Part shown: positions 2,688 through 20,069 of the stretch, piece after piece | How the letters are laid out: every line of letters starts with the position of its first letter | Position numbering within the stretch: the first letter of the stretch is position 1 | Assembly: GCA_934086395.1 (NCBI GenBank) | Contig: CAKOIE010000005.1 | Coordinates: forward strand, 1 to 50,832 | DNA length: 50,832 nucleotides | Direction: 5' to 3' | Source of the DNA: an uncultured Bacilli bacterium | GTDB lineage: Bacteria; Bacillota_I; Bacilli_A; RF39; UBA660 | Position numbers and translations under genes: made by a program | The notes under the pieces: model-generated | Database searches by the model: none | What the model saw: only the letters and a program-made list of their open reading frames with translations | Told to the model about the DNA's origin: nothing

Positions 2688-2714
2688 ATAATCATCACCT
2701 CGTGTTATTATATC

Positions 2715-3250: not shown

Positions 3251-3267
3251 GTTCGAAAATTTCGAAC
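3251..3267. promoter_or_regulatory. 17-bp perfect palindrome, candidate operator
   Basis: GTTCGAAA-A-TTTCGAAC, about 190 bp upstream of the MATE start. Confidence 0.3.
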
Positions 3268-3360
3268 AAATTCATCATTGGAGCGATTAAGTAACAGCTT
3301 ACGAACCATAACATTCTCTTTCTAAAAATATTATATATGAGATCCTATTAAATTTCAATG

Positions 3361-3411
3361 AGAGTATGGAGAATTTTGTTATTCACATAGAGTATGGAGA
3401 ATTTTGTTATT
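3361..3411 (+). repeat. Two tandem copies of a 23-bp direct repeat overlapping the MATE promoter region
   Basis: AGAGTATGGAGAATTTTGTTATT occurs at 3361-3383 and 3389-3411, separated by CACAT (28-bp period). TATAAT at 3418-3423 and ATG at 3458 follow. Confidence 0.7.
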
Positions 3412-3457
3412 TTATAGTATAATTTTATTGATTTAATACTTTTTTATGGAGTGAGTT

Positions 3458-4726
3458 ATGGAAGAAATAATAAATGTTAAGTCACAATTAAAAATATCAT
3501 TACCGATAGCTTTTGAAAGTTTAATAAATATATTAATGACACTAGTAGATACATTAGTAATTTCTATAGTTGGAATAAAAGAATTAGCAGCACTTGGTGC
3601 CATGGCTGTTATATTAAATATAATGCAAATGAGCATTCAAACAATTAATGTATCTAACAATACATTAGTTGCAAAGTCTTTGGGTGAAAAAAATCTTGAT
3701 AAATTAAAATTAGTTACTGGAAATTCACTTATTTTGACATTAATAATATCTATATTTACATTAATACTAATATTTTTAATACAACCAATATTTCCACCTT
3801 TATTTAATGTAGATACTATTGCAACTACATATCTAACTATAAGATTATTTGGTTTTATACAAAGCAGTGTAGTAACTGTATTATCAGGCCATCAAAGGAC
3901 TATAGGAAATCAAAAAAGTATTTTATATTTACGAATTTTTGCCGTTATTTTAAATTTAATATTAGATATCATTAGTGTGCATTATGGATACGGAATTATA
4001 GGTGTAGCAATGATAACTGTATTTATCGATACCATACTGGAAATATATTTATGTATATATTCTAGAAAAAATGTAAAAATTAGATTTGTAAATGAATACT
4101 TTAAAGATATATTAAAATTATTTAAATGGAATTTTATTGAAAGAGTAGCGTCAAGGATAGACAATTTTATATTCAACTTAATTGTAGCAAGAATGGGTAA
4201 TTTAGAATATTCTGTTCACGTTATTCTATTACAAATTGCAAATGTATATGAGTCATTTATACAAGGATATGGTGATGGTATTACTATAAGTATAGGAATT
4301 GCATCTGGAAAAAATGATAAAAATTACATGAGTAAAGTGAAAACTGTTGCAAAGAAATTAATTAATTATAGTTCCATAATATTACCTTTTATAATACTTA
4401 GAATTTCCATTGTAATTATGAATATTTCATTAAAAGAACCTGAACTTCAAAAAATATTTTTAACAGTATTACCACTATTTTTAATTGGTTGTTATATAAC
4501 AATGTCTGCTACATATTATTTTGCTATATTAAGAGGACTTAGAGATTTTAAATTCTTAGCTAAAAGAAATATAATTAGTTCCATTATTAAAATTGTTGTA
4601 GCGACTATATTGTCATTTACTCCACTTGGAATTGTTGGTGTATGGATAGGATATTTAGTATATGGAATAATGCAAAAAGTTTTATCTAAGATAAGATATG
4701 AAAATATAAGTATAGAAAGTGAGTAA
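3458..4726 (+). CDS. MATE-family efflux transporter
   Basis: 422-aa polytopic membrane ORF with a GGAGTGAG RBS. N-terminus is typical of MatE proteins (LKISLPIAFESLINILMTLVDTLVIS), with about 12 hydrophobic segments. Confidence 0.8.
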   Translation: MEEIINVKSQLKISLPIAFESLINILMTLVDTLVISIVGIKELAALGAMAVILNIMQMSIQTINVSNNTLVAKSLGEKNLDKLKLVTGNSLILTLIISIFTLILIFLIQPIFPPLFNVDTIATTYLTIRLFGFIQSSVVTVLSGHQRTIGNQKSILYLRIFAVILNLILDIISVHYGYGIIGVAMITVFIDTILEIYLCIYSRKNVKIRFVNEYFKDILKLFKWNFIERVASRIDNFIFNLIVARMGNLEYSVHVILLQIANVYESFIQGYGDGITISIGIASGKNDKNYMSKVKTVAKKLINYSSIILPFIILRISIVIMNISLKEPELQKIFLTVLPLFLIGCYITMSATYYFAILRGLRDFKFLAKRNIISSIIKIVVATILSFTPLGIVGVWIGYLVYGIMQKVLSKIRYENISIESE

Positions 4727-4730
4727 TTAA

Positions 4731-5252
4731 ATGAATAATATATTATCAAATATCAACATTATTGAGTACAATGGAAAATATAATAAATAAATAAATGATT
4801 TTGTTAATTTATCAATGCATATTTTTATTGGAAGGCCATTTAAACAAAGAGAGGACATAATTAATATACAAGATTATTACATTGAAAAAGGTGGCAATTT
4901 TTGGATTGCGTTTGATAAAGATAAGATAGTAGGAACAATTGCACTTGAAAATAGAAATACAATTGGAATATTAAAAAGATTTTATGTTGATAAAGACTAT
5001 CAAAGATTAGGATTTGGATCATTGCTATATAATGAATTTGAAATCTACGTAAAGTCTAAGACAAATATTAAAACTATTTATCTTGCTTGTGGAAAGTCTT
5101 TTAAAGATGTTCATAACTTTTATACGAAAAAAGGTTGGAAACAAATTAATAAATTAGATATAGATATGCACTTTGCAAATAATGATGATTTCTTCAAAAA
5201 AGATTATAAAGGGTATGAGAATTCCCATAGTAGAATTTATGTAGGAGTATAA
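4731..5252 (+). pseudogene. GNAT N-acetyltransferase interrupted by an in-frame TAA at codon 20 (longest intact ORF 4815..5252)
   Basis: ATG 4731 lies 4 nt after the MATE stop. It reads MNNILSNINIIEYNGKYNK, then TAA (4788-4790), then continues in the same frame into the 145-aa ORF with a GNAT core (IVGTIALENRN...RFYVDKDYQRLGFGSLL). Confidence 0.65.
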
Positions 5253-5308
5253 ATTCAGTGCTGGCTAGACATATATTTTATTCCCATATTAAAAAATCAA
5301 AAAAAGGA

Positions 5309-5380
5309 TTAAATTATTCTGATAATTTTTTCCACTTTTTGGTCGTCAGTAGATATTCTTACATAAATATCACATCTCAT
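5309..5380 (-). pseudogene. N-terminal stub of a serine recombinase (23 codons)
   Basis: AAGGAGAAAAACT-ATG, then MRCDIYVRISTDDQKVEKIIRII-stop. YxRxSTxxQ is the catalytic-serine N-terminus of resolvase/invertase-type recombinases. The rest of the gene is absent. Confidence 0.5.
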
Positions 5381-5420
5381 AGTTTTTCTCCTTGAAAGAA
5401 AGAAAACTTTTTGAGTTTTG

Positions 5421-5459
5421 TATAAAATAAAAACTTACGAACAATTAAGTCCGTAAGTT
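5421..5459 (-). terminator. Intrinsic terminator downstream of tRNA-Gly
   Basis: On the minus strand, AACTTACG-N12-CGTAAGTT (8-bp stem) is followed by TTTTATTTTAT. Confidence 0.55.
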
Positions 5460-5468
5460 AATTTCTAA

Positions 5469-5542
<74 letters not shown>

Positions 5543-5557
5543 GTCAAATACAAACTA

Positions 5558-5587
5558 ATTATATAATAAATTAGAATGTATTTGCAA
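5558..5587 (-). promoter_or_regulatory. Putative sigma-A promoter for tRNA-Gly
   Basis: On the minus strand, TTGCAA (5582-5587), an 18-nt spacer and TATAAT (5558-5563), ending about 15 nt upstream of the mature tRNA 5' end. Confidence 0.45.
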
Positions 5588-5597
5588 GTATTTTTTG

Positions 5598-7721
5598 CTA
5601 TTTTATTAAAGAAAGTTGAACTTTTCCTTTATTTTTGTCAATATCCGATATATAAACAGTTAAAATATCTCCTACACTAACAATATCTTTAGGATCTTTA
5701 ACAAAGTTTTTGCTCATTTTAGAAATGTGTAATAATCCATCATCATGTAAACCAATATCTACAAAGGCTCCAAATGAAGCAACATTTCTAACTGTTCCTT
5801 TTAATTCCATCCCTATAGATAAATCATCAATAGTTAATACGTCACTTCTTAAAATTGTTTCTGGTGCTTCACTTCTAGGATCTAATCCGGGATTTTTTAA
5901 TTCTTTAATTATATCAGTTACTGTATAAATATCTGAATTTAATTCTTTTGTTAATCTTTCTATATCAATATTTTCTAGTTTATGTTTAAACTCTTCTGTT
6001 TTAATATCTTTAATATCTGAATTTAATAACTTTAATAATTTACTTGTTAATTCATAACTTTCAGGGTGAATTCCTGTGTTATCTAGTGGATTTACACTAT
6101 TATTAATTCTTAAGAAACCAACACATTGTTCATAAACTTTATCTGTTGTTAATTTTTTAATTTCTTCTCTTGATGTAAATTCTTTTTTTTCTTTAAATTT
6201 TTGAATTTTATTAATTACAGTAGTAGTTAAACCTGATACATATTTTAAAATAAAGTTTGAAGCAGTATTAATGTTTACTCCTACCTCGTTTACAACTTTT
6301 GATACTGTATTATCTAAGCTTTCGGTTAGTTTTTTAGAGTTTACATCATGTTGATATTCTCCTACACCAATGCTTTTTGGATCTATTTTTACAAGTTCTG
6401 AAAGTGGGTCAATAACTCTTCTTCCAATACTTACTGCACTTCTTTCTTGAACTTCATAATCAGGAAATTCTCTTTGGGCTTCTTTACTGGCAGAGTAAAC
6501 GCTTGCTCCTGCTTCACTAACTATTGTATAATAAACGTCTTTTAAATCCTTAATAGTGTTTGCTACAAATTCTTCACTTTCTCGTGATGCTGTACCATTA
6601 CCAATAGCGATTAAATTAATGTTATAAGTTTTAATTAAGTTAAGTAATTTAATTCTTGATGCTTCTTTTTCATTTTTTGGTTCATGAGGATAAATTACAT
6701 CTTTATGTAAAACGTTGCCTTTTTCATCAAGACACGCTAGTTTACAACCAGTTCTAAATGCTGGGTCAAATCCGAGAACACGATATCCTTTAACGGGTCT
6801 AGTCATAAGAAGATTTTCTAAATTATCTTTAAATACCTCGATGGCATTATCTTCTGACTTTTCAGTTAATTCACTTCTTACATCTCTTTCGATTGATGGA
6901 TATATTAATCTTTTTAGGGCATCTTTTATGGCGTCATTAACATAATCTACAACAAATGATTCTTTATTTTTAATAATTTTATTAAATAAAGAGTTAAAAA
7001 TATAATCATTATCATAATCTAATTTAACTGTTATAACATTTTCTTTCTCGGCTCTATTTATAGCTAAAACACGATATGGTTTAATGTATTTAACTTTTTC
7101 AGTAAAGTCATAGTATATTTCATATGTCTTTTTTTCATCCACAGCGTTTTTCTTTATTTTAGATACAATTGATGCATTATTCCAAATATAATTTCTGACG
7201 AATTTACGATAATAAGCATTATCACTAATCCATTCACTTATAATATATTTAGCGTTTTCTAGGGCAACATCTTTTTCAACATTAGGAACGATACCACATA
7301 ATGATTCTAAACTCCCTTTAGTAGGGAATGCCATAATTGCTTTAGCAAGTGGTTCTAATCCCATTTTAATTGCTTCAGTAGCTTTTGTTTTCTTCTTTTC
7401 TTTATATGGCAAGTATATATCTTCTACTTCAACTAATTTAGTACAGTTTAGGATATTCTTTTTGATTTCATCTGTAAGCATACCTTTTTCATCAATTAAT
7501 CTAATAACTGTTTCTTTTCTTTCCATTAAGTTATTATAATAACGATATTTTTCTTCTATTTTGGCTATTTGATTTTCATCTAATGCGCCGGTGGCTTCTT
7601 TACGATATCTGGCAATAAATGGTATTGTTGATCCTTCTTCTAAAAGAGTTAATACTGCCTTTATTTGATTTATTTTAATATTAAGTTCACTACTTAATTC
7701 TTCTATTACTATTTCATTCAT
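5598..7721 (-). CDS. tex: Tex-like transcription accessory protein (YqgF/RuvC-like, HhH and C-terminal S1 domains)
   Basis: 707 aa. N-terminus is typical of Tex (VLTLLEEGSTIPFIARYRKEATG), with a YqgF-like centre (VLGFDPAFRTGCKLA) and a C-terminal S1 domain (GMELKGTVRNVASFGAFVDIG...GLLHIS). Confidence 0.9.
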   Translation of the reverse strand: MNEIVIEELSSELNIKINQIKAVLTLLEEGSTIPFIARYRKEATGALDENQIAKIEEKYRYYNNLMERKETVIRLIDEKGMLTDEIKKNILNCTKLVEVEDIYLPYKEKKKTKATEAIKMGLEPLAKAIMAFPTKGSLESLCGIVPNVEKDVALENAKYIISEWISDNAYYRKFVRNYIWNNASIVSKIKKNAVDEKKTYEIYYDFTEKVKYIKPYRVLAINRAEKENVITVKLDYDNDYIFNSLFNKIIKNKESFVVDYVNDAIKDALKRLIYPSIERDVRSELTEKSEDNAIEVFKDNLENLLMTRPVKGYRVLGFDPAFRTGCKLACLDEKGNVLHKDVIYPHEPKNEKEASRIKLLNLIKTYNINLIAIGNGTASRESEEFVANTIKDLKDVYYTIVSEAGASVYSASKEAQREFPDYEVQERSAVSIGRRVIDPLSELVKIDPKSIGVGEYQHDVNSKKLTESLDNTVSKVVNEVGVNINTASNFILKYVSGLTTTVINKIQKFKEKKEFTSREEIKKLTTDKVYEQCVGFLRINNSVNPLDNTGIHPESYELTSKLLKLLNSDIKDIKTEEFKHKLENIDIERLTKELNSDIYTVTDIIKELKNPGLDPRSEAPETILRSDVLTIDDLSIGMELKGTVRNVASFGAFVDIGLHDDGLLHISKMSKNFVKDPKDIVSVGDILTVYISDIDKNKGKVQLSLIK

Positions 7722-9349: not shown

Positions 9350-9414
9350 ATGTTCCTCCGAATTTATTATATCAAGAAAAAATAGAATGTGATAGAATAT
9401 TATTTGTGATTAAT

Positions 9415-10314
9415 ATGTATTATAATAATTTAAGTGATTTTTATAAGAATAAATTTGGATGTAAAGTTGTTAAACTTTCTTTTGATGGTGGATTTAGTTG
9501 TCCTAATAGGGTTAATGGCTCTGGTGGTTGTATTTTTTGTTCAGGTTCTTATGAGTTTGCAGGAGATAGAAATAAGTCTTTAGAAGAACAATATCAAGAA
9601 CAAAGAATAGTGATGGATAAAAAATGGCCTAATGCGAAGTATATAGCTTATTTTGGTTCTTTTACTAATACTTTTGATACACTTGATAATTTAAAGAAAA
9701 GATTTGAAAAGGTTTTAAGTTTTGATAATGTGATTGGTTTATCAATTGGAACTAGAAGTGATTCAATTAGTAGTGAATGTTTTGAGTATTTAAGTGAGCT
9801 TAACAAAAGAACATTTTTAACAATTGAACTAGGGTTACAGTCTTCTTTTAATCAAACTTTAAAGTATATTAATAGAGGTCATGATATAGAAAATTTTGAT
9901 AGATGTGTTAAAAAACTAAAGGAATTAAATATTAATGTGGTTGTACATATTATTGATGGTCTTCCTGGTGAAACTGAAGATATGATGCTAGATACAGTTA
10001 GACATTTAAATAAACTAGATATAAATGGAATAAAGATACATAATCTATTTGTTGTTAAAAATACATTGCTTGGTAAAATGTATGAGGATAGTCCTTTTAA
10101 ATTACTTGAAAAAGATGAATATATTGATTTACTTGTTAAACAAATAAGAATTTTAAAACCTAGTATTGTAGTTCATAGATTAACTGGTGATCCTAAAAAA
10201 GAGGACCTCATTGCTCCATTATGGGCTGTTAAAAAAATTGATGTTTTAAATGGGGTTGTTAAGAAACTTAAGAAAGATAAAGCTTATCAAGGAATTGATT
10301 ATAAAGAAAATTAA
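9415..10314 (+). CDS. TIGR01212-family radical SAM protein
   Basis: FGCKVVKLSFDGGFSCPNRVNGSGGCIFCS is the characteristic N-terminal Cys motif of this family. Start set to ATG 9415 (the track uses GTG 9406), so the start is uncertain. Confidence 0.8.
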   Translation: MYYNNLSDFYKNKFGCKVVKLSFDGGFSCPNRVNGSGGCIFCSGSYEFAGDRNKSLEEQYQEQRIVMDKKWPNAKYIAYFGSFTNTFDTLDNLKKRFEKVLSFDNVIGLSIGTRSDSISSECFEYLSELNKRTFLTIELGLQSSFNQTLKYINRGHDIENFDRCVKKLKELNINVVVHIIDGLPGETEDMMLDTVRHLNKLDINGIKIHNLFVVKNTLLGKMYEDSPFKLLEKDEYIDLLVKQIRILKPSIVVHRLTGDPKKEDLIAPLWAVKKIDVLNGVVKKLKKDKAYQGIDYKEN

Positions 10315-10336
10315 AAAAGTCGTTATGACTTTTTTT
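10313..10336. terminator. Bidirectional terminator between convergent genes
   Basis: AAAAAAGTC-gttat-GACTTTTTT(T), a perfect 9-bp stem flanked by A and T runs. It spans the stop codons of both convergent ORFs. Confidence 0.65.
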
Positions 10337-11003
10337 GAAATGTATAAATATTTATTTTATGTTCTATAATTTTACTTGATATTTTTGCAGATACAGTTTC
10401 TCCATATATTACATTAAAGCATTTAATGGCGATAGGTAAGGTTTTAAATTTAAAATATGTATTAAAAGTTTTTTCTAATTTAAATTCATTTTGTATAATC
10501 CAAGAATTATAAATTTTCGTTCTTGTATCTTTGTCTCTATCACGTAATTGTTCAAATTCGCTATTTTCAGCATTTTCGATTAAGACCATAATTCCATCTT
10601 TTTTCAATACTCTTTTTAATTCAAACAATGCTTTATTTCTTTCTTCTAATTTAGTTATTGTCCCTAATACCCAACATGAAATTATTAAATCGACTGAATT
10701 GTCTTCTAATGGAATATTTGTTAAATCAGATGATATAAATATTGAATTAGATTTTTTAGATTTTGATTTTGCTTTTATTAATTGGTCATTTGATAAATCA
10801 ATTCCAATATATTTTTGAGCATCTTTTTCTATTGTTTCTAAAAATTTTCCCGTACCACAACCAGCATCTAAAACAATTTTATCATTAATAAGTGATTTTA
10901 TATAATCCCTAACTTTATTTTCATAATCTTCTGCTTGACTAAATATTTCGTAATAATCATTATCTTCATAATAAGCCTTAGAATCTTTTAATAGGTTTTT
11001 CAT
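10323..11003 (-). CDS. Class I SAM-dependent methyltransferase (last gene of the six-gene operon)
   Basis: 226 aa with motif I VLDAGCGTGKF and post-I IGIDLS. ATG has an AAAGGAAA RBS and overlaps the ATP-grasp gene by 26 nt. Confidence 0.8.
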   Translation of the reverse strand: MKNLLKDSKAYYEDNDYYEIFSQAEDYENKVRDYIKSLINDKIVLDAGCGTGKFLETIEKDAQKYIGIDLSNDQLIKAKSKSKKSNSIFISSDLTNIPLEDNSVDLIISCWVLGTITKLEERNKALFELKRVLKKDGIMVLIENAENSEFEQLRDRDKDTRTKIYNSWIIQNEFKLEKTFNTYFKFKTLPIAIKCFNVIYGETVSAKISSKIIEHKINIYTFQKKS

Positions 11004-12018
11004 ACATAGTTTCCTTTTTCATATCTACTGTTTCAGGATATATCATATCTACAATATACTTAGCAATATTTCGTGATTGTCCAATGGCTGGTCGATAATG
11101 CATATGAATACCTGGAACCGTATTTATCTCGATTATTTTATATGAATAATCATTTTGCTGATCTGATATAGAATTTGTCATAAAATCAATTCCAACATAT
11201 GGTAATCCCGGAAAGGCTTTTAAAACTTTTAAACCTATTTCAATAACACTTGGATGAACTTTGTCTGTATAATCTTCGCAAATTCCTCCCATAGCAACAT
11301 TTGAATTTGGTCTTAAATAAATTTTTTTACCCATTTGAGGTACACTATTTAAACTTAGATTATTTTTTCTTAAATATGAAATTAATTCTTCATCCACTAA
11401 AATTTCACATAATGCGTTAGTTCTTGGATTCATTCTTTCATAATTTTCTTTATTAATTAAATATTCTATTGTATGAATTCCATCGCCAAAAATATGGGCT
11501 GGATCACGTAATAAGACTGCATAGTTACCATTTCTAGTTATAAATACTCTATACTCTTTGGCATTATAATATTCTTCTATTATTATTCTGGTTGATTCTC
11601 CACGATGATTGATTATGTTAATTATAGCATTTTCAACATCCTGTTCAGTGATTAAATTTGTATATACGTCAAAACCATGAGAACCAAAGACTGGTTTTAT
11701 TACGACTGGACAGTTTAATATTTTAAATGCTCTTTTTATATAATCAATATCTTTAGCTAAAAATGATTCTCCAATTGGAACTGATATTCCATGTTGAATT
11801 AAATTTTTTTTGGTAAAATATTTATCGCCAGCTAATATAGAAACATTATATGGCATAATTGAAGAATCTCTATCAATTATTAGTTCTTCATGACCTTGAA
11901 ATGACGTTTTTATTATTTCTCTTTTTTCATTTATTACTTCAACACTTATTCCTCTTTTTAGCATTTCATATATAAAAATCTTTTGATTTGAATGCAAATT
12001 TTTATATATGTTTTCCAT
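10978..12018 (-). CDS. ATP-grasp ligase of the GshF C-terminal / cyanophycin-synthetase N-terminal type
   Basis: 346 aa. The pattern resembles the ATP-grasp domains of GshF and CphA: CPVVIKPVFGSHGFDV, EYRVFITRNGNYAVLLRDPAHIFGDGIHTI, YLRPNSNVAMGG, IIEINTVPGIHMH. Confidence 0.75.
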   Translation of the reverse strand: MENIYKNLHSNQKIFIYEMLKRGISVEVINEKREIIKTSFQGHEELIIDRDSSIMPYNVSILAGDKYFTKKNLIQHGISVPIGESFLAKDIDYIKRAFKILNCPVVIKPVFGSHGFDVYTNLITEQDVENAIINIINHRGESTRIIIEEYYNAKEYRVFITRNGNYAVLLRDPAHIFGDGIHTIEYLINKENYERMNPRTNALCEILVDEELISYLRKNNLSLNSVPQMGKKIYLRPNSNVAMGGICEDYTDKVHPSVIEIGLKVLKAFPGLPYVGIDFMTNSISDQQNDYSYKIIEINTVPGIHMHYRPAIGQSRNIAKYIVDMIYPETVDMKKETMYEKPIKRF

Positions 12019-12538
12019 TACCTGTTGTTCCTTTTTTTAATTCACTAATTAAAATGTCTAATTCAGTATTTTCTTGTTTTAATCTTTCTGTTTCTTGTTC
12101 ATATTTTCTTGCTTCAGCCACTAATCTGCTTAGCTCTTCTATTTTTTGTTTTCTTTCTAATAAAATTTTGTTTATATTTTCATCTTTTGGATTGACACTT
12201 ACAACTGTTGTTTTTAACCTTTCTATTAGTTTGTCAATGTCATCAAGACTATTATATTTTCTTTCTTTAGGCAATGGAGTTCCATCACTTAATGATTGAG
12301 GATAAGACACCGAAATATTTTCTGATGTTATATTTTGTTTTTCATTAGTTCTTGATTCTGATGTTATAAAATTTGAATTTGTTAGAGATGTTCTACTTTC
12401 GCCACTTGAGTATGATGATTGTGGTGATGTTGTTCTACTTTCGCCACTTGAATATAAAGGTCGTGATAATGAGGTCCTACTTTCGCCATAAGAATCTCTA
12501 AAACCATAGTTACTTCTACTTTCAAAATTACTTTCCAT
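12002..12538 (-). CDS. Ser/Thr/Arg-rich repeat protein with C-terminal coiled coil (unknown function; candidate substrate or scaffold of the operon)
   Basis: 178 aa. ATG lies 1 nt after the upstream stop, with an AAGGAGAG RBS inside the upstream gene. There are five ESR(T/S) motifs, and the C-terminal half is heptad-like and charged (KILLERKQKIEELSRLVAEARKYEQETERLKQENTELDILISELKK). Confidence 0.7.
   Translation of the reverse strand: MESNFESRSNYGFRDSYGESRTSLSRPLYSSGESRTTSPQSSYSSGESRTSLTNSNFITSESRTNEKQNITSENISVSYPQSLSDGTPLPKERKYNSLDDIDKLIERLKTTVVSVNPKDENINKILLERKQKIEELSRLVAEARKYEQETERLKQENTELDILISELKKGTTGNGKHI
12347..12526 (-). repeat. Intragenic repeats encoding five ESR(T/S) motifs at a 13-14-residue period
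   Basis: ESR occurs at residues 6, 19, 33, 47 and 61. Three units are YG/SSGESRT. DNA-level copies are TTCTACTTTCGCCACTTGA (twice) and TCCTACTTTCGCCATAAGA. Confidence 0.8.
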
Positions 12539-12539
12539 T

Positions 12540-13355
12540 TTAAATACTCTCCTTTATAAATACGGCATCAAGTAAATTTGTTTTATTTATTAATGCGCTA
12601 CTTAATGTTTCTATTTTTATATTTCCAAAGATTTTTTTAACATTTTCTATATCATCTATCGCACTTCGTTTTGTATTTTTATTAACATCATAAACATAAG
12701 CAAAATAAATATAATGAACATTCTTTAAAAAATTATTAATTAATTTATTATAATTTTCCAAACAATTATTCTCAAACATTAGGTCAAGATAATCAGAAAT
12801 ATTTGATAAAAACATATAATCGTATTTATCTTCTAATTTTAAATTTTTTAGATTGGTTTCTAAATAAACAATGTTTACGTTATCCAATCTTGTTTTTATT
12901 ATATCATAATTATGTTGATTAAAATATAAATTATAGTCCTTTTTAGCTTTTGGATCAAAATAATTTGTATTAAATAGGTCTGAATATTTAAGTTTCAATC
13001 CATCATTTTTATTTTTGGCTAATTCTTTAATCCAAAACTTTTTACATTTTTCATCTATTTTTAATGAAGTTATTATTTCGTATGAAAATGTTTTAGGCGT
13101 GTCAAATAAGATAAAATCTAAAAAATCATTATATTTTAATTGTTTTATTGCTGCTATTTTTAGTTCCATATAATATTTTGAATATGGATTAATATCAAAA
13201 GTTGTTATTTCATTGCATCCTTTTAAGATTACATTTAAAATGTGATCAGCTGATCCCGTGACTGTGACAATCTTTTTATTAGTTAAATCAAGTTTGTTCA
13301 TATATCCAGCTATATTTTCGGTTGTAAATAAATATATACTTTTAAATTTTTCCAT
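12540..13355 (-). CDS. Short DUF3419/BtaA-like SAM-dependent (3-amino-3-carboxypropyl-transferase-like) protein
   Basis: 271 aa. VTVTGSADHILNVILKGCNEITTFDINPYSKYYMELKIAAIKQLKYNDFLDFI mirrors the conserved N-terminal block of BtaA/DUF3419 proteins (SAGCN...VDLNPAQ..LLELK.AA...L.Y.DF). It is shorter than canonical BtaA. Confidence 0.6.
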   Translation of the reverse strand: MEKFKSIYLFTTENIAGYMNKLDLTNKKIVTVTGSADHILNVILKGCNEITTFDINPYSKYYMELKIAAIKQLKYNDFLDFILFDTPKTFSYEIITSLKIDEKCKKFWIKELAKNKNDGLKLKYSDLFNTNYFDPKAKKDYNLYFNQHNYDIIKTRLDNVNIVYLETNLKNLKLEDKYDYMFLSNISDYLDLMFENNCLENYNKLINNFLKNVHYIYFAYVYDVNKNTKRSAIDDIENVKKIFGNIKIETLSSALINKTNLLDAVFIKESI

Positions 13356-14793
13356 AGCATATTCCCTTTGATTTATTTTTTAAAAATTTTTGGATATTAT
13401 TATCATTTAAGACTTCCTTTAATGAATTATTTCTTAATGAGATTGAAGATATACATTTTTTATTATTTTCATATACCCATGGACAAGGACTAATAAATCC
13501 TTTGTTATTTATATAAAGAAATTTATCTCCTGCTGGACATTTTTTTATATATACTGGCTGTTGTCCAAAATTATAATTTATGATTATTTTATCATTATAT
13601 TTTTCTTTTAGTGCATTTATTTGATTAATTAAATTTTCATTTGATTCAGTTTTAATCAAATCTTTACTTTGACCTTCAACTGGTTCCATTATGGAAAATA
13701 TTATTTCATTAGCTTGTAAATTAATTGATTCTTCTATTACATTTTTTAAGCTATTTTCATTTTTTGCATGAATAACAGTACCAATTCTAATTTTATTTTT
13801 TGAATTTTTTAAATATTTTAATCCTTTGATTGTTCTTTCATAAGTCGTTTTACCTCTTACTGATTCTTGTTCTTCTTTATTACCATCTAGGCTAACGTGT
13901 ATCATTTTTAAATTTATTTGATTTAGTTTGTTAACTATTTCGGGAGTTATTAAGGAAGCATTAGTTGATATATCTACTGTAAGATTTTTGCTAGCATACT
14001 TTAATATATCAATAATATCTGTGCGAATAAAAGGCTCTCCACCTGTTATTTTTAAATGTTTATATCCATTGTTTACTAATTCGTCAATAACATGCTTACA
14101 TTCTTCGGTAGTCAACTCTCCATATACTCTTTTTTTATCACATGAAAAAATACAGTAAGAACAACCATAGTTACAATTATGTGTTATTTCCCATATTGCT
14201 TTTCCTTCATTTTTTGGTAATGTAAATTTACATTCCATTTTATTTTCTATAAATTCGTTTATTTTATTTATTTCCATATTTTCCTCTACTATCATAAACT
14301 TTTTTGATTCATATTGTTTTATATTAGATATTCTTTGTAATTCAAATCGTTTTATTATTTCCTCCTGTGAAAGGTCACTTTCTTTTAATCTATCTAATCT
14401 AACTTTTTCAGGGGTATTTAGATATATGATTTTATCAAATTTTTCGATTAAATTATCATTTATTATTAAAGCCCAATCAATAATTATTGTTTTATTTTTC
14501 ATTTTATCTATATAAGAAAATAAGTAATCATATAATATCTTTTTATAGTTATTCATATTATTTTGATTATTATAAATATACTTGTTTAAAATTTTTGAGT
14601 CTATTTTCTGATAGTTCTTCAATTCATTTATGTTTTGTTTTAATTTATTTATATAATTATTATTGTTGTATAAATTTCTTCTAAATACATCGACGTCTAT
14701 ATACTCAAAATTAGGATTTAATTCAATTAATTTTTTAGATAATGTGGTTTTGCCAGAAGACATGCCTCCTGTAATTCCTATTAATCTATTCAT
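13342..14793 (-). CDS. Fusion of a dephospho-CoA-kinase-like P-loop domain and a radical SAM enzyme with a SPASM/twitch-like C-terminus
   Basis: Start re-set to ATG 14793 (MNRLIGITGGMSSGKTT), which overlaps the upstream stop as ATGAATAG. CoaE-like motifs IGITGGMSSGKTT and IDVDVFRR; rSAM CxxxCxxC (HNCNYGCSYCIF); Cys-containing tail CPAGDKFLYINNKGFISPCPW...KKC...GIC. Confidence 0.75.
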   Translation of the reverse strand: MNRLIGITGGMSSGKTTLSKKLIELNPNFEYIDVDVFRRNLYNNNNYINKLKQNINELKNYQKIDSKILNKYIYNNQNNMNNYKKILYDYLFSYIDKMKNKTIIIDWALIINDNLIEKFDKIIYLNTPEKVRLDRLKESDLSQEEIIKRFELQRISNIKQYESKKFMIVEENMEINKINEFIENKMECKFTLPKNEGKAIWEITHNCNYGCSYCIFSCDKKRVYGELTTEECKHVIDELVNNGYKHLKITGGEPFIRTDIIDILKYASKNLTVDISTNASLITPEIVNKLNQINLKMIHVSLDGNKEEQESVRGKTTYERTIKGLKYLKNSKNKIRIGTVIHAKNENSLKNVIEESINLQANEIIFSIMEPVEGQSKDLIKTESNENLINQINALKEKYNDKIIINYNFGQQPVYIKKCPAGDKFLYINNKGFISPCPWVYENNKKCISSISLRNNSLKEVLNDNNIQKFLKNKSKGICYGKI

Positions 14794-16126
14794 ACCAACA
14801 CATCCCATACTTGATAGGAATAAAGGCTGCAATTTTAGTATTTTTTTCTAAATTATTATATTTATTCCAATCAATGTCATCAAAAATTATACTATATCCT
14901 TTTTGTTTTAAATCTTCTATTAATAAATTTATTCCTTCTGTTAGTTCCTTATTGACGTTGTTAGGGTGATTAGAATGAATGTATTGACTTTTATTTACTA
15001 TATTTTTATTCTCTTCAAAAATAGGTGTGCCTACTCTATACGCTAAATAATGCAATCTTAATTCATGTGGCTCTATTTCGTTTATTAATTTTCTAGTTAA
15101 GTTTAAATCTTCTTTTGTTGTGTTAGGATAATCTAGAATAATACTATTTCTTACTCTGTATCCTATTGCTTTTACTTCTTTAATTATTCTTTTTATATTA
15201 TCTATATTCATATTTTTTTGCATATAATTTAAGATTTTTAAACTTCCTGATTCAATTCCAAAGTGAATCCATCTAAAACCAATGTCATACATTTCTTTAA
15301 ACATTTTTTCATCATAGCAAGATATACTACTAAGACAGCCAAATAAACATTTTATATTCCTGCTTTTTATTTCGTTACATATATCAAACATTCTTTTTTT
15401 ATCTACTGTCATATTATCATCTAAAAAAATTATTTTTTTAGTATTATAATTATTTATAAGGTATTCAATCTCATCAACAACCTGTTTATAATTTTTTGAT
15501 TGCCAATTCTTAAAAAATACCGGAGTTGTGCAAAATGTACATTTTCCTATGCAACCACGAGAAGTTATCATTGTTCTAGTATCCATATATTTACTGATGT
15601 CTAATAACTCTCTTTTAGGAATATCTAAATCTTTAAAATAATTTGTTGTTTTTTGATTAGAAGTTAATATTATTTTATTGTGATTTTTATAAGCTAAATT
15701 TGGTATTTTATATAAATCACCATTTGATATTATGCAATCTATTACTTCATTAATAATATTATCTGCTATGCCTTTAATTACGATATCAAACCCATTATTT
15801 AAAAATTTTTCGTAGTAGTATGAAGAAGTTTTTCCAATAATAATAAACTTAGTTTCTTTATTACAATTTTTTATTATTTCAAACATATTATTTATTGTTT
15901 CACTTGTGTGAAGTGGTAATTGATAGTCATAAACAAATATTACAATATTTTTATCTTTTAAATATTCATTAATGTTATTATCCATTCTATTTACATCCAT
16001 ATCGATAACATTTACTTTATGCTTTTTATTTATTATTGTTGCAATTTGAAGAACATCTAGTGGTTCAGCTAATATTGATTTATTTGTAAATGGTTTGTTT
16101 GGTGGATTAATGACTAAAATATTCAT
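14786..16126 (-). CDS. B12-binding-domain (class B) radical SAM protein
   Basis: 446 aa. N-terminal Rossmann-like B12-binding-type region (MNILVINPP...NIVIFVYDY...FIIIGK), then the rSAM cluster SRGCIGKCTFCT. AAGGAGAAAAAT-ATG RBS. Confidence 0.8.
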   Translation of the reverse strand: MNILVINPPNKPFTNKSILAEPLDVLQIATIINKKHKVNVIDMDVNRMDNNINEYLKDKNIVIFVYDYQLPLHTSETINNMFEIIKNCNKETKFIIIGKTSSYYYEKFLNNGFDIVIKGIADNIINEVIDCIISNGDLYKIPNLAYKNHNKIILTSNQKTTNYFKDLDIPKRELLDISKYMDTRTMITSRGCIGKCTFCTTPVFFKNWQSKNYKQVVDEIEYLINNYNTKKIIFLDDNMTVDKKRMFDICNEIKSRNIKCLFGCLSSISCYDEKMFKEMYDIGFRWIHFGIESGSLKILNYMQKNMNIDNIKRIIKEVKAIGYRVRNSIILDYPNTTKEDLNLTRKLINEIEPHELRLHYLAYRVGTPIFEENKNIVNKSQYIHSNHPNNVNKELTEGINLLIEDLKQKGYSIIFDDIDWNKYNNLEKNTKIAAFIPIKYGMCWYE

Positions 16127-16158
16127 ATTTTTCTCCTTAATTGTCTCGTTTTTAAAAT

Positions 16159-16187
16159 ATTTTATCTAAAATAAATAATTTTTGCAA
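16159..16187 (-). promoter_or_regulatory. Putative sigma-A promoter of the six-gene operon
   Basis: On the minus strand, TTGCAA (16182-16187), a 17-nt spacer and TAAAAT (16159-16164), about 33 nt upstream of ATG 16126. Confidence 0.5.
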
Positions 16188-16239: not shown

Positions 16240-16275
16240 AAAAGAGTTAACTTAGGACCAAATGTTAACTCTTTT
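16240..16275 (-). terminator. Hairpin overlapping the M13 peptidase stop codon (weak terminator)
   Basis: AAAAGAGTTAAC-N12-GTTAACTCTTTT, a perfect 12-bp inverted repeat. The U-run is limited to the stem end. Confidence 0.4.
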
Positions 16276-18186
16276 TTCTGGTTCAATATACATTAAATCT
16301 TTTGAATCTATTTTATATGTTTCGTAAAACTTTTTGGTTGATGATAATACTCCGTTTACTCTTATTTCATTAGGTGAATGAGTATCAATTAAACTTTGTA
16401 ATACTTTAGTGCTTTTACTATAATTATTAGCCCAAACTTTAGCAAATGATTCGTAGGTTGTTTGATAATCTTTTTTATTTGCATTATTTTTTATTAAGAT
16501 ATTTGTAATGCATTCCATAGCGCCTAAATCAGCAATGTTTTCACCAATTGTACGAGTTCCATTATTAGAAACATTATGAATAATTTCGTAGTTGTTGTAG
16601 TACTCAATAACTTTATTTTGAATTTCTTGATATTTTTCTTGGCTTGATGCGGTGTACCAATTACTAAGAAAGCCATTTTCATCAAATTTTGAACCATTAT
16701 TATCAAATGCATGGGATATTTCATGAGCTATTATGAAACCAATACTTCCAAGATTTTCATATTTATTGTTAATATCTTTAATTACTTTAGTGCTTCCAGT
16801 TAATATATTAATTGAGTTTGATGTAACATCATAATAGGCATTAAATGTATAATCTGGTAGAGCATTAGTCGTAGTAGTTGTATCTAACATTTCGTATGAT
16901 GCAGATCTCACTACTTTGTTAAGATTAATAATATTTTTTACTAATGAAATATTACTATCAAAATCATAGTATGAAGAAAAATCTTTAATATAGTTTGTAC
17001 CAATATTTATTTTAATATTGTTTAGTTTAGTTACAGCCTTACTTTTTGTTTCATTATCCATCCAAGATGTATTTATCATGTCTTCATATTCTTTAATTAT
17101 TTCATTTGTAAGATTAGAGATATAATTTTTAGTATCTTCAGTTAAGTATTTATTGTTGTAATTTTTGGAAATCTCATTAGGATATATTTGTTTAATTAAA
17201 TCATAAGCCGTTTCTTCTCTAGTATATTCTTTACCTAATAAATTTTTATTTAGTTTGGTAAATATTGTTTCATAATTTTCAGTTGTATATACAGCATAAG
17301 TTTGAAGTATTTTTATTGTTGCTATATTTTTCCATAAAGAAAGATTACTATTTGTTAAATATTTATTTAATTCTTGATATGATTTTTCATCAACTAAGCT
17401 TAGTTTATCTATTTTAGATAGGCCTAATTCATTAAAATATTTGTTAATATCTAAATTAGTATAAATTTTACTTAACGCTGATTTATCAATAATATTATAG
17501 TATTTTTCAGTATTTAATAAATCATCTTGTTTTAATGAATTATTAGCTAGATTTGTATAGAAGTCATCGATTTGATTAGTTATATCTAAGACTTCTCCAG
17601 CGGTATAACCATATTCTCTTAATAGTTTGTTATTATATAATTTAAAATTATTTTTTACAGTAGTTAATGTTTCGTTGCTATAATAATCTGATGAATAACC
17701 GTAATCCATTGGAATTGATGTTATATATAAAATGTTCTTTCCTGTTTTAAAATCTTTCATGATTGATTTAGACATTAATAATTCAATACCTAGTTCTTTT
17801 TCTAGTTTTATTGCTTCAGTAATAAAGTCGTTAATATTTGTTGTTTTATTAATTTTATCTATGTATGGCTCTAAATCTTTTAATCCATTCTTGTTACGAA
17901 CATCAATATTTAAATATTCATTATAAAATTCTTTAATATTTTTTTCTTCACTTGTAGTTGGATTATTTATTATTTCTTTTACTATGTTGTTAGAATCATT
18001 AGAAATTTCTTTGTTTATATCATCAATATATGACCAACCATCTTTTTTATCTTTAATTGCTTCTTTATTTATGTATTCGTAATAATTATCAATATAATTT
18101 TTATTTAAGTAAATAAATGCAGTTATTATAACAACAACAAATATTATTGCATATAGAATATATTTTTTAGTTTTATTTTTAGTCAC
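16252..18186 (-). CDS. pepO: M13-family (neprilysin/PepO-like) zinc metallopeptidase with N-terminal membrane anchor
   Basis: 644 aa with HEISHAF (HExxH), ENIADLGA and the distal NAYY block typical of M13. TM anchor YILYAIIFVVVIITAFIYL. The GTG start overlaps the upstream permease stop by 8 nt. Confidence 0.85.
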   Translation of the reverse strand: MTKNKTKKYILYAIIFVVVIITAFIYLNKNYIDNYYEYINKEAIKDKKDGWSYIDDINKEISNDSNNIVKEIINNPTTSEEKNIKEFYNEYLNIDVRNKNGLKDLEPYIDKINKTTNINDFITEAIKLEKELGIELLMSKSIMKDFKTGKNILYITSIPMDYGYSSDYYSNETLTTVKNNFKLYNNKLLREYGYTAGEVLDITNQIDDFYTNLANNSLKQDDLLNTEKYYNIIDKSALSKIYTNLDINKYFNELGLSKIDKLSLVDEKSYQELNKYLTNSNLSLWKNIATIKILQTYAVYTTENYETIFTKLNKNLLGKEYTREETAYDLIKQIYPNEISKNYNNKYLTEDTKNYISNLTNEIIKEYEDMINTSWMDNETKSKAVTKLNNIKINIGTNYIKDFSSYYDFDSNISLVKNIINLNKVVRSASYEMLDTTTTTNALPDYTFNAYYDVTSNSINILTGSTKVIKDINNKYENLGSIGFIIAHEISHAFDNNGSKFDENGFLSNWYTASSQEKYQEIQNKVIEYYNNYEIIHNVSNNGTRTIGENIADLGAMECITNILIKNNANKKDYQTTYESFAKVWANNYSKSTKVLQSLIDTHSPNEIRVNGVLSSTKKFYETYKIDSKDLMYIEPEKRVNIWS

Positions 18187-19324
18187 CGAACAACACCTTC
18201 TCTTGATTATATTTTTTTATTATTAGAAATACAGTTATGACAGATAATATGAGTGTACTTATGATCGTCATTAAAATATTTAAAGTATTAAAGTTATTTG
18301 AGAATATATCCATAAGAATTTGAACACAGTTGACAATTGGAATTGCATAGTAAATTAAACTATCAGTTGAAATACTTAAGATGTTTGTAAATAAAGGTAT
18401 CATTGATAGGTATTGTAATATAGCAAGCTTGATTCCGGCTTCTTTAGCCGTTTTAGTGTTAGCAACTAGAATGGTTGCAAGAGCAGAAATTACAAGTGAT
18501 GATGCTAAACTAACACATAATCCAATTAAGATACTTTTAGTTGATACGGAAATATTCAAATTGCTAAATGATACAAAATAATGACTTGAAATAACTAGGG
18601 TTAATAATACGGATAAGAATTCGATTATTGATGCGGCAGCACTGGCAATAAAGTTAGCTAAGTATTTTCCTAATATTAGTTCTTTTTGAGATATTGGAAA
18701 ACTTAGGATAGTTTCTAGAGTTCCACTTTCTTTTTCGGTAACGGTTGTTGATATGGCCATTGACTGGGATGTTGATATTATTCCAGCAAAAATAAGCATA
18801 AATAGGGTTGAATAAATTGTTACAAGAATAAAGTCGCTACCTTCTAATTCTTTAAATTCATAATTATATTTGGCGTTTATTTCTTCATAATCAATACCTT
18901 CTCCTGCAACGTATGTTATTAGTTCATTGTTTTTTAATGATTCAAAGTAACCTTTAATTAAACTTTGTAGTTTATAACCATCTTGACTATTATCAGTATA
19001 AAAATAATACTTTTTTTCTTCTTTGTTATAATCTATGTAAGCATTTATATCTTTATCTTTATAGGACTTTTCCATTTCACCCAGATTATCATATTTAACT
19101 GTTTCTAATTGATATTCGCTACTTACGATGTTTTCGATAATATTTGGTTCAAAGTCAATTCCTACTTTGTATGGTTCTAAAACTTGGTTTTGATCAAACA
19201 TGACTCCATAAACTATGACAAAGAACATTCCAATTAAAGGCATAGCAAGTAAAGTTATAAATGTTTTTTTATCTCTAACGATAGAACGAAGTTCTTTTTT
19301 GATTGTTATTATTATATTATTCAT
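18179..19324 (-). CDS. ABC-2-type transporter permease (NatB-like)
   Basis: 381 aa. N-terminal TM, a large extracytoplasmic loop and five C-terminal TMs, which is the ABC-2 architecture. It overlaps the upstream ATPase gene by 8 nt. Confidence 0.75.
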   Translation of the reverse strand: MNNIIITIKKELRSIVRDKKTFITLLAMPLIGMFFVIVYGVMFDQNQVLEPYKVGIDFEPNIIENIVSSEYQLETVKYDNLGEMEKSYKDKDINAYIDYNKEEKKYYFYTDNSQDGYKLQSLIKGYFESLKNNELITYVAGEGIDYEEINAKYNYEFKELEGSDFILVTIYSTLFMLIFAGIISTSQSMAISTTVTEKESGTLETILSFPISQKELILGKYLANFIASAAASIIEFLSVLLTLVISSHYFVSFSNLNISVSTKSILIGLCVSLASSLVISALATILVANTKTAKEAGIKLAILQYLSMIPLFTNILSISTDSLIYYAIPIVNCVQILMDIFSNNFNTLNILMTIISTLILSVITVFLIIKKYNQEKVLFGD

Positions 19325-20069
19325 TATCTTCTCCTATTAATTTTAAAAACGCATCTCTAATGTTGGTTGTATTAGTATTTTTTAAAATTTCTTCACTTTT
19401 TCCGTAGGCAATAACTTTACCTTTATTAATAAGTAATAGTTTATCACAGATGTTTTCTGCTTCTTCCATATAATGAGTTGAATATAATATGCATTTGCCT
19501 TTAGTTTTTTCTTCGTTAATAAAATCTAAAATTGTTTTACTAGAAATAACGTCTAGCCCACTTGTTGCTTCATCTAAGATATAATATTTTGGATTATGAA
19601 CTAGGCAACGAGCAATACATGTTCTTTGGTACTGACCAGTAGATAAACTTTCAATTCTTTGATAAGCAAATGATTCCATATTAAATCTTTTAATAATATC
19701 ATTTATGATTTTTCCTAATTTATCCTTGGGAACTCCATAATATTCACCACACATTTTTAGTAATTCATAGGGTGATATATCCTTATATAATTTAGTATTT
19801 CCTGACATGAAAGCGATATTTTTCTTAATTGTTTCATTATTTTTTTGGTAGTTCATGTTGTCAATTAAAATCTCACCGCTATCTGGTTTCATAATTCCTG
19901 ATATCATTCTAAGTAATGTTGTTTTACCTGCTCCATTAGGTCCTAGAATCCCTAAAACTTCACCTTCCATTGCAGTAAATGAGATATTATTATCAGCAAG
20001 AAATGTTTCTATTTTATTTAGGTTGTTTTTTTTCTGAAAACTTTTTGTTACGTTTTTTATTTCAATCAT
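19317..20069 (-). CDS. ABC transporter ATP-binding protein (NatA-like)
   Basis: 250 aa with Walker A GPNGAGKTT, signature LSTGQYQR and Walker B YYILDEATSGLD. AAAAGGAG RBS. Confidence 0.9.
   Translation of the reverse strand: MIEIKNVTKSFQKKNNLNKIETFLADNNISFTAMEGEVLGILGPNGAGKTTLLRMISGIMKPDSGEILIDNMNYQKNNETIKKNIAFMSGNTKLYKDISPYELLKMCGEYYGVPKDKLGKIINDIIKRFNMESFAYQRIESLSTGQYQRTCIARCLVHNPKYYILDEATSGLDVISSKTILDFINEEKTKGKCILYSTHYMEEAENICDKLLLINKGKVIAYGKSEEILKNTNTTNIRDAFLKLIGEDNE

Follow-up and report, generated by a model that had tools for sequence, protein, structure and literature searches.

The DNA analysed here, hereafter the window, is a stretch of 50,832 nucleotides from an uncultured Bacilli bacterium of the RF39 lineage (contig CAKOIE010000005.1, assembly GCA_934086395.1). 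The element under study is a cassette of six overlapping open reading frames (ORFs; g1 to g6) that run on its minus strand from 16126 down to 10323. The cassette encodes two radical S-adenosylmethionine (SAM) enzymes, one of which is fused to a kinase, together with a short DUF3419 transferase, an ATP-grasp ligase, a methyltransferase, and a serine-rich protein with repeated Glu-Ser-Arg (ESR) motifs. We give a probability of roughly 0.5 to the view that these enzymes form a protein-modification pathway resembling those of ribosomally synthesised and post-translationally modified peptides (RiPPs), and that they act on the ESR repeats of the co-encoded g4. The features are as follows.

14786..16126, minus strand: g1, class-B-like radical SAM enzyme of 446 residues (PF04055; CX3CX2C motif, CIGKCTFC)
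13342..14793, minus strand: g2, CoaE-like P-loop kinase (residues 1-170) fused to a radical SAM domain (residues ~195-483) with a twitch-like tail (Pfam, motifs, AlphaFold2 model, and Foldseek)
12540..13355, minus strand: g3, short DUF3419 (BtaA-like) SAM-dependent transferase of 271 residues (PF11899, AlphaFold2 model)
12002..12538, minus strand: g4, ESR-repeat coiled-coil protein of 178 residues, candidate substrate (family of 96, ESR enrichment)
12350..12523, minus strand: disordered Ser-rich region of g4 with five ESR motifs (residues 6-8, 19-21, 33-35, 47-49, and 61-63; sequence)
12215..12259, minus strand: conserved g4 helix KYNSLDDIDKLIERL, residues 94-108 (family alignment)
10978..12018, minus strand: g5, stand-alone ATP-grasp carboxylate-amine ligase of the CphA G-domain/GshF C-terminal type, 346 residues (NCBIfam, PDB)
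10323..11003, minus strand: g6, class I SAM-dependent methyltransferase of 226 residues (PF08241)
16159..16187, minus strand: candidate sigma-70-type promoter TTGCAA-N17-TAAAAT (sequence; 9/12 matches in a scan; located in the sole sizeable intergenic gap upstream of g1)
16132..16138, minus strand: Shine-Dalgarno sequence AAGGAGA, 5 nt ahead of the g1 ATG (sequence)
10313..10335, no strand assigned: AT-rich 9-bp hairpin AAAAAAGTC-loop-GACTTTTTT, candidate bidirectional terminator between the convergent g6 and a YtqA-like radical SAM gene (RNA fold)

The six ORFs had been proposed as one operon in a sequence-only reading of the window, and all of them are present. Its junctions also hold, four of them being overlaps (8, 14, 17, and 26 nt) and the fifth a 1-nt gap, when g2 is started at the ATG at 14793. 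This start was preferred to an upstream TTG because the homologues of g2 are 476-491 residues long.

Searches and scope

Domain searches used the hidden Markov models of Pfam and NCBIfam on all six window proteins, and PADLOC models served as a check for defence systems. Orthologues were sought separately with g2, g3, and g4 as anchors. The g3 anchor gave 121 relatives in 185,579 species-representative genomes, and 80 loci were kept and scored with all six window proteins. For the g4 family, 1.84 billion representative proteins were searched exhaustively with a profile, which gave 96 members; counts were made on the 90 that look full-length. Residue conservation in g2 was read from an alignment of 41 homologues, and flanks were compared by clustering the genes around about 30 cassettes. 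The chance level of ESR was set by composition-preserving shuffles (2000 for 14 orthologues and 500 for the 90 representatives).

Conservation and distribution of the cassette

The six genes travel together. Three members of the g2 family with unrelated flanks all have the order g1-g2-g3-g4-g5-g6, and the same order is seen in all 14 loci in which g3 scores at least 250 bits (L007-L020), 12 of them complete and two cut by contig ends. With g4 as the anchor, two divergent g4 genes proved to have g3 and g5 on either side in contexts that otherwise differ, and a metagenome scan added nine further complete cassettes. The position of g4 between g3 and g5 is kept in every complete cassette, apart from the rearranged locus L073 described below. 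Clustering of the roughly 30 flanks found nothing in common except generic ABC ATPases. The fixed gene order and the unconserved flanks together indicate that the unit consists of exactly these six genes. The proposal that the genes belong together had been staked on their co-localisation in other genomes, which is borne out in the same six-gene order from each of the three anchors.

The hosts are uncultured Bacilli or 'Mollicutes' metagenome-assembled genomes (MAGs) from human, mouse, rabbit, and ruminant gut, rumen, and biogas reactors. One of them, a MAG from Hadza gut (L007), belongs to the same species as the window at 97% identity. The window encodes a LytR-CpsA-Psr protein and a LysM amidase, which indicates that its host has a cell wall. 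Among the 80 kept g3 loci, 15 hold the cassette, namely 14 of the Bacilli type and L073, and no orthologues were found on viral contigs. Genes of conflict or mobile type adjoin some cassettes, including a DUF1016/YhcG nuclease, Fic, a 1192-residue YobI-ATPase, and DUF4379/DUF559 (L004:1-2255, L247:9241-14252, and L249:8302-10666), and such neighbours suggest that the cassette lies in variable genomic islands. A link to queuosine or deazapurine metabolism through GTP cyclohydrolase I (L004) and Vut_1 (L006) was considered and dropped, as each occurs in one context only.

The most divergent arrangement is on a contig labelled Candidatus Peribacteria, of the candidate phyla radiation (L073, region 675-7051). 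Each gene there contains 6-35 in-frame TGA codons, and TGA aligns with Gly 34 times and with Trp never, from which we conclude that this genome uses genetic code 25. Read with this code, g5 lies on one strand, while g1, a stand-alone CoaE-like kinase (203 residues, matching g2 weakly at 29 bits), a fusion of radical SAM and DUF3419 domains, and g6 lie on the other. The fusion protein has 636 residues and matches PF04055 at 99 bits and PF11899 at 34 bits, which constitutes Rosetta-stone evidence that both enzymes work together. The many recoded codons point to a long residence of the cassette in this lineage, and its presence there implies old horizontal sharing between a lineage of the candidate phyla radiation and gut Bacilli. 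A 225-residue ORF upstream of g5 in L073, with a coiled coil and a Ser-rich tail ('YSSESSH'), was tried as a g4 homologue and rejected (profile E=1.7); judged by sequence, it is a positional analogue only.

The ESR-repeat protein g4

The family to which g4 belongs is small, with lengths of 100-236 residues, and g4 matches no known family in Pfam or NCBIfam. In the window, a strong Shine-Dalgarno sequence dedicated to g4 (AAGGAGAG) lies inside the 3' end of g3. Orthologues are about 35-45% identical, mostly in the block (K)YN(S/N)LDDID(K/S)LIE(R/K)LE and the coiled coil that follows it. This amphipathic helix is the sole strongly conserved block of the family, with invariant or near-invariant columns at Y95, N96, L98, D99, D100, I101, D102, L104, I105, and E106. 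Outside the helix and the coiled coil, g4 is Ser-rich and disordered-looking and contains repeated S-[S/G]-E-S-R motifs; the early description of a 178-residue protein with repeats and a coiled coil was accurate.

The ESR motif is strongly enriched. It occurs 67 times in 14 non-redundant orthologues against 4.1 expected (at most 11 in any of the 2000 shuffles), and 371 times in the 90 representatives against 22.8 expected (at most 36 in 500 shuffles), an excess of about 16-fold. At least one ES[R/H] is present in 85 of the 90 representatives, the usual copy number being 4-6 and the largest 10. The residue after [S/G]-E-S is R in 316 cases, H in 19, and N in 17. The motif often marks the ends of the protein: the N-terminus is MSESR in 37 of the 90 and MESR in another 13 or so, and the C-terminus is [G/S]ESRW (e.g. 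GESRW) in 27. Most motifs are doublets spaced 5-6 residues apart, such as SESRxSGESR, and they can flank the helix on its N-terminal side, its C-terminal side, or both.

The ESR units are encoded by 13 distinct 9-mers, with both AGY and TCN codons for Ser and both AGR and CGN codons for Arg. Such varied codons argue for selection on the peptide and not on the DNA. The SSGESRT units of the window g4 are specified by a tandem repeat in the DNA at 12387-12488, with a period of 42 nt, 2.4 copies, and 81% matches. A protein that is 87% identical to the window g4 (P0122) has one repeat unit fewer, which indicates that repeat number changes quickly between close strains. No other ESR-rich ORF is present in the window. 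Some g4 proteins (L001:10268-10909, P0129, P0135, P0273, and P0305) carry an extra block of about 35 residues between the ESR repeats and the helix, 'Y(E/A)DWLKTxPxxxxGGLSSxxEMHxAYxEW', which is duplicated in L001.

The enzymes

The fusion protein g2 shows GITGGMSSGKTT, IDVDV, and CNYGCSYC in its translation and matches PF01121 (CoaE) at 47.2 bits (cut-off 27) and PF04055 at 92 bits. In the kinase, G9, G14, K15, D33, D35, R132, R135, R149, and Q153 are invariant; the Walker A Gly and Lys, both Asp of D-V-D, and the CoaE-type lid Arg are thus fixed, and the Val is conserved in at least 90% of sequences. This pattern indicates that the kinase is under selection, and its patchy occurrence and fusion to a radical SAM domain argue against a housekeeping role as dephospho-CoA kinase. 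In the radical SAM half, C207, C211, and C214 of the CX3CX2C motif are invariant. PF13186 (SPASM) gives a borderline 22.3 bits against a cut-off of 21.5. Four C-terminal Cys are conserved (C419-X12-G-X4-C437, C447, and C479), and the CX2CX5CX3C block of the full seven-Cys SPASM motif is absent from the 41 homologues. We therefore regard the tail as twitch-like, with a single auxiliary cluster.

The AlphaFold2 model of g2 (mean predicted local distance difference test score, pLDDT, 86) has two domains joined by a flexible linker. When the radical SAM half was compared with solved structures by Foldseek, five of the six top-ranked distinct proteins were peptide or protein enzymes (PqqE, SkfB, SuiB, anSME, and CteB) and the sixth was the nucleoside enzyme BlsE; viperins, MoaA, and EpeE rank just under the peptide enzymes. 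By sequence, the best PDB match is SkfB. Clusters of the fusion family number more than 120, with identities of 60-98%, and one carries the label 'dephospho-CoA kinase [Mollicutes bacterium]'. In the metagenome scan, identity to g2 drops directly from 59% to the generic radical SAM level, which marks the fusion as a tight family.

The other radical SAM enzyme, g1, matches PF04055 at 61.8 bits. Its best NCBIfam match is QCMT (TIGR04014), at 119.9 bits where the cut-off is 360, and ApyD, a RiPP enzyme, comes next (110.5 bits); its best PDB match, 9ccb, is QCMT as well, an enzyme that methylates a protein Gln residue. The class-B models BchE and HpnR align to g1 from residue 1-3 with scores far under their cut-offs, so homology to class B radical SAM methyltransferases is likely, whereas residues 1-191 give no match to the B12-binding domain PF02310 even at E<=1. 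The same similarity network includes AprD4 and ArsL homologues, which do not bind cobalamin (2026 review, PMC12931638). We therefore call g1 class-B-like only and regard its cobalamin binding as putative. In several biogas 'Mollicutes bacterium' contigs (L001:6612-8005, L003, L010, and L090) g1 is split into ORFs of 144 and 269 residues, while the near-identical contig L002:6677-8008 has an intact g1 of 443 residues; the split reflects either a frameshift or a pseudogene present in certain strains or faulty assembly.

The transferase g3 matches PF11899 (DUF3419) at 54.3 bits (cut-off 28.2), at profile positions 5-120 of 385 only. There is no full-length DUF3419 match, no NCBIfam match, and no sequence match in the PDB. 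Its AlphaFold2 model (pLDDT 93) shows a class I Rossmann SAM-binding fold into which about 100 residues of helical structure are inserted, and has no close solved relative, with TM-scores of about 0.4 to Dam and NNMT. A BtaA-like transfer of a 3-amino-3-carboxypropyl (ACP) group by g3 is a prediction only.

Stand-alone paralogues of g3 (L021-L086) are far more widespread than the cassette and occur in uncultured Bacilli, some Muribaculaceae, and a Myxococcaceae MAG. They are about 310 residues long, score 75-137 bits, and lack the other five cassette genes. Their neighbours show weak trends only (a SufC-like gene at 13 loci and a glycosyltransferase of the monogalactosyldiacylglycerol (MGDG) synthase type at 7). 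In these 7 of 65 loci the paralogue lies 46 bp upstream of the glycosyltransferase (e.g. L024:2193-4211), which hints at a lipid role for the stand-alone family.

The ligase g5 scores 231.7 bits with the cyanophycin synthetase model TIGR02068 (cut-off 850) and 188.8 bits with the GshF model NF002688 (cut-off 425), and it matches the PDB entries 7wac (153 bits) and 3ln7 (116 bits). Residues 5-330, essentially its whole length, align to GshF 428-755, and g5 also aligns with residues ~216-483 of CphA1. Neither the multi-domain CphA architecture (N, G, and M domains) nor the combination of GshA with ATP-grasp is present in g5, which is the ATP-grasp module alone. Finally, g6 matches PF08241 (Methyltransf_11) at 77 bits and contains the motif VLDAGCGTGKF. 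No transmembrane segment is predicted in any of the six proteins and no signal peptide is seen in their N-termini; all the cassette enzymes are predicted to be soluble.

Most of the domain assignments made from the letters alone thus agree with the profile searches. The short BtaA/DUF3419-like protein stands for the N-terminal third of the profile, the GshF/CphA-type ligase for its ATP-grasp parts (232 and 189 bits), and the class I methyltransferase and the fusion of a CoaE-like kinase to a radical SAM core stand as described. Two calls are corrected: in g1, the radical SAM core with CIGKCTFC is present and the B12-binding domain is not detected, and in g2, the Cys tail described as SPASM/twitch-like is twitch-like with four Cys and not a full SPASM module.

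No NCBIfam equivalog reaches its cut-off for any of the six genes, and PADLOC gives generic radical SAM and methyltransferase matches with no system-level match. We found no description of the cassette, the kinase-radical SAM fusion, or the ESR family in the literature searched or among curated models, in line with the earlier statement that the operon has no recognisable counterpart.

Operon signals and neighbouring genes

The ribosome-binding site AAGGAGA that had been noted ahead of g1 is present at 16138-16132. The promoter proposed upstream of it, TTGCAA-N17-TAAAAT, is likewise present in the sequence but is statistically indistinguishable from the AT-rich background of the window (about 24% GC), in which promoter-like hexamer pairs occur at chance density (57 found, 56 expected). 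As such, only its position favours it as the g1 promoter. The closing hairpin is real: the 9-bp stem at 10313-10335 folds at -7.5 kcal/mol (z=-4.88), none of 200 shuffles folds equally well, and a standard terminator scan misses it because it is too AT-rich. Rfam models find no riboswitch or other RNA by the operon; a tRNA-Gly alone was found.

On the plus strand at 9406-10314, a tRNA-modification radical SAM gene of the MnmL/YtqA type (TIGR01212) converges on g6 and shares the terminator hairpin, an arrangement kept only in the same species (L007). The genes immediately upstream of the cassette on the same strand (16252-20069, minus) encode an ABC ATPase, an ABC-2 permease, and a membrane-anchored zinc peptidase of the M13 (PepO-like) type. 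It is possible that these products could act locally in processing or export; they are not counted as parts of the cassette because flank clustering shows no conservation.

Farther away, 20 kb from the cassette, the window holds a complete Wadjet-like (JetABCD) anti-plasmid operon (36866-44816, minus strand), with genes for DUF2397 (43332-44816), DUF2398 (42152-43339), an SMC/SbcC-like protein of 1370 residues (38095-42207), and a DUF3323/DUF2399 protein (36866-38098). A 1554-residue protein with two FtsK/SpoIIIE ATPase stretches (46063-50727, minus strand) resembles EssC of type VII secretion or a DNA translocase.

Discussion

The sequence-only reading had placed the six genes in one pathway whose target would be the repeat protein or, alternatively, a small molecule or lipid. 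The notion of a single pathway is supported, and the balance has moved toward the repeat protein. We favour modification of g4 because the six genes travel together, g4 is always present, ESR is repeated, the enzymes are predicted to be soluble, and the radical SAM enzymes are nearest to peptide and protein enzymes. Two traits expected of RiPP systems are also found: a co-encoded candidate precursor, with g4 as the presumed substrate, and a conserved part suited to recognition that accompanies repeated core sites.

As such, we envisage a self-contained cytoplasmic cassette that would modify g4 post-translationally at S-[S/G]-E-S-R sites. The helix KYNSLDDIDKLIERL may serve as the recognition element through which g4 docks on the enzymes, while the disordered arms would present the ESR sites. 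The QCMT-like g1 would add a methyl group to a side-chain carbon that is not activated, probably in Glu or Arg, and the twitch-type radical SAM half of g2 would abstract a hydrogen, leading to a cross-link, an oxidation, or an epimerisation. The CoaE-like kinase may phosphorylate a hydroxyl, either that of the motif Ser or an adenosine-type 3'-OH. It is possible that g3 moves a SAM alkyl group to a nucleophile of the motif, which by analogy with BtaA would be a 3-amino-3-carboxypropyl group delivered to a primary hydroxyl, and that g6 then methylates the result as BtaB does. The ligase g5 would convert a carboxylate to an amide, using the Glu gamma-carboxylate or the one on the transferred group. 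The end product could be a highly modified protein or, if a protease whose gene lies outside the cassette cleaves it, multiple copies of a small modified peptide. Precedents exist among the structural neighbours of g2: anSME oxidises Ser in S-x-P-x-R, and SkfB and PqqE make cross-links. The S-x-E-x-R of g4 shares its Ser-to-Arg spacing with the anSME site S/C-x-P/A-x-R, which may be a coincidence.

Several observations weigh against this interpretation. None of the six proteins contains a domain of the RiPP recognition element (RRE) or PqqD type (Pfam, E<=0.01), and the clustered flanks contain no protease or exporter gene that accompanies the cassette from locus to locus, the M13 peptidase and ABC genes of the window and a C39-ABC gene in L001 being locus-specific. 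An RRE domain is not obligatory for RiPPs. The motif is absent from five of the 90 g4 representatives, and the ORF in the g4 position of L073 is not detectably homologous to g4 (E=1.7). As a long coiled-coil protein, g4 is an atypical RiPP precursor and could be a scaffold or a regulator. With respect to g2, neighbours that act on nucleotides or sugars (viperin, MoaA, and BlsE) come close behind the peptide enzymes in score and the best NCBIfam match is the tetrapyrrole enzyme AhbD, so its similarity is also compatible with nucleotide or tetrapyrrole substrates.

The alternative that survives best would have the cassette build a small molecule or a lipid head group, a possibility that we take seriously but regard as unlikely. 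A BtaA-like transfer of ACP (e.g. to diacylglycerol) would be followed by N-methylation by g6, amidation by the ATP-grasp ligase, and tailoring by the radical SAM and kinase domains, with g4 as scaffold, chaperone, or regulator. The literature searched knows DUF3419 only as a betaine-lipid synthase domain and nowhere together with radical SAM enzymes, and one g3 orthologue carries the automatic Joint Genome Institute (JGI) name SAM:diacylglycerol ACP transferase. The presence of DUF3419 and class I methyltransferase genes in the same operon recalls BtaA/BtaB, both radical SAM enzymes match the lipid-modifying HpnJ, HpnR, Tes, and GDGT-MAS weakly, and the g5 relatives GshF and CphA use small peptide-like carboxylates. 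The stand-alone paralogues upstream of a diacylglycerol glycosyltransferase point the same way, but they occur without the other five genes. Moreover, g3, with its 271 residues, matches the DUF3419 profile at positions 5-120 of 385 only, membrane segments are absent from all six proteins, and the protein-level selection on a repeated motif in the fast-evolving g4 would be left unexplained.

A nucleotide-directed role in conflict or defence seems to us quite improbable. Here, the kinase would supply or phosphorylate a nucleotide, a viperin-like radical SAM domain would convert it to an antimetabolite, the other enzymes would tailor the product, and g4 would be a sensor or regulator. The radical SAM half of g2 does match the PADLOC model for 'viperins associated with kinases' at 76.8 bits, and viperins are among its structural neighbours. 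The patchy distribution, the variable insertion sites, the Fic, YobI-ATPase, DUF559, and DUF1016 genes that adjoin several cassettes, and the Wadjet-like operon in the window would all suit such a role. However, the PADLOC match spans the generic radical SAM core only, no PADLOC system fits the gene set, and the NCBIfam viperin model NF038283 scores 59.8 against a cut-off of 180. The conserved Cys-rich twitch tail of g2 is a further difference, as to our knowledge viperins are without such an auxiliary-cluster domain. The failure to find orthologues on viral contigs also speaks against defence, and the ESR-repeat protein is given no role.

A housekeeping-type modification of tRNA, rRNA, or a ribosomal or translation protein, wybutosine- or diphthamide-like and with g4 as an accessory factor, is very unlikely: the enzyme logic, with radical SAM chemistry followed by ACP transfer, methylation, and ATP-dependent amidation, parallels those pathways (as general knowledge, not homology), the g5 family includes RimK-like protein glutamylases, and the neighbouring gene in the window is a tRNA radical SAM gene of the MnmL/YtqA type, but that neighbour is not conserved, no cassette gene is homologous to Tyw or Dph enzymes in Pfam or NCBIfam, and presence in 15 of the 80 kept g3 loci is too patchy.

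If g4 is the substrate, modification of its ESR sites would amount to a RiPP-like class of protein modification that is as yet uncharacterised, found in uncultured, host-associated Bacilli. The precursor design would be unusual, with many tiny S-E-S-R sites around one docking helix, and the pathway would bring new radical and polar SAM chemistry to Glu, Ser, and Arg side chains. It could give DUF3419 its first function outside lipid synthesis and a first role to the kinase-radical SAM fusion family, now labelled 'dephospho-CoA kinase' in databases. A bolder version, which we find doubtful, is that the cassette defines a new class of natural product or cofactor in which Ser-Glu-Ser-Arg units become a small modified peptide or peptide-derived molecule. 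The enzymes would be four SAM-consuming ones (two radical and two polar), the fused P-loop kinase, and the ATP-grasp ligase. Such a pathway would include the first DUF3419/BtaA-type alkyl transfer onto a peptide and would be shared by gut Bacilli and a TGA-recoded lineage of the candidate phyla radiation.

Comparison with known systems

The closest parallels are the RiPP pathways with SPASM or twitch maturases (PqqE of PQQ, SkfB, SuiB of streptide, CteB, and MftC of mycofactocin). The CX3CX2C motif of g2 and its C-terminal CX12GX4C auxiliary module resemble theirs, these maturases are its best structural and PDB-sequence neighbours, and a candidate substrate gene likewise lies inside the operon. 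Unlike those pathways, the cassette is without an RRE/PqqD domain, a protease, or an exporter, and g2 has an N-terminal kinase, four tail Cys, and NCBIfam scores far below cut-off (e.g. MftC, 104 against 265). At 100-236 residues and with up to 10 ESR sites around a recognition helix and coiled coil, the g4 proteins also differ from their precursors. QCMT (TIGR04014, 9CCB) is the best profile and solved match of g1 and methylates an unactivated carbon of a protein residue. In contrast to QCMT, g1 scores 119.9 bits against the 360 required, is without a PF02310 match, and is found in a bacterial host without MCR.

The BtaA/BtaB pathway for the betaine lipid diacylglyceryltrimethylhomoserine (DGTS) also pairs a DUF3419-family transferase with a class I methyltransferase in one operon. 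Unlike BtaA, g3 matches the N-terminal third only, is about 130 residues shorter than the profile, and has no conserved lipid context; unlike the BtaA/BtaB pair, it is accompanied by two radical SAM enzymes, a kinase, an ATP-grasp ligase, and a repeat protein. The ATP-grasp modules of the CphA G domain and GshF couple an amine to a carboxylate that they first activate as an acyl-phosphate, as predicted for g5, which differs in standing alone without CphA N/M or GshA domains and in scoring far under the equivalog cut-offs. Graspetides such as plesiocin likewise combine an ATP-grasp ligase with a precursor that carries several short Ser/Glu motifs. However, g5 falls in the CphA/GshF clade and matches no microviridin-type model, five further enzymes are present, and the motif is S-E-S-R instead of the T/S...D/E pairs of graspetides. 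Prokaryotic viperin and kinase genes share with g2 the combination of a P-loop nucleotide-type kinase with a radical SAM enzyme, as the PADLOC pVip match reflects, and are set apart from it by the NCBIfam viperin score, the twitch Cys tail, and the five conserved partner genes. Thus, the enzyme superfamilies and the tailoring of a co-encoded precursor are already known, while the combination of enzymes and the precursor design are, as far as we found, unprecedented.

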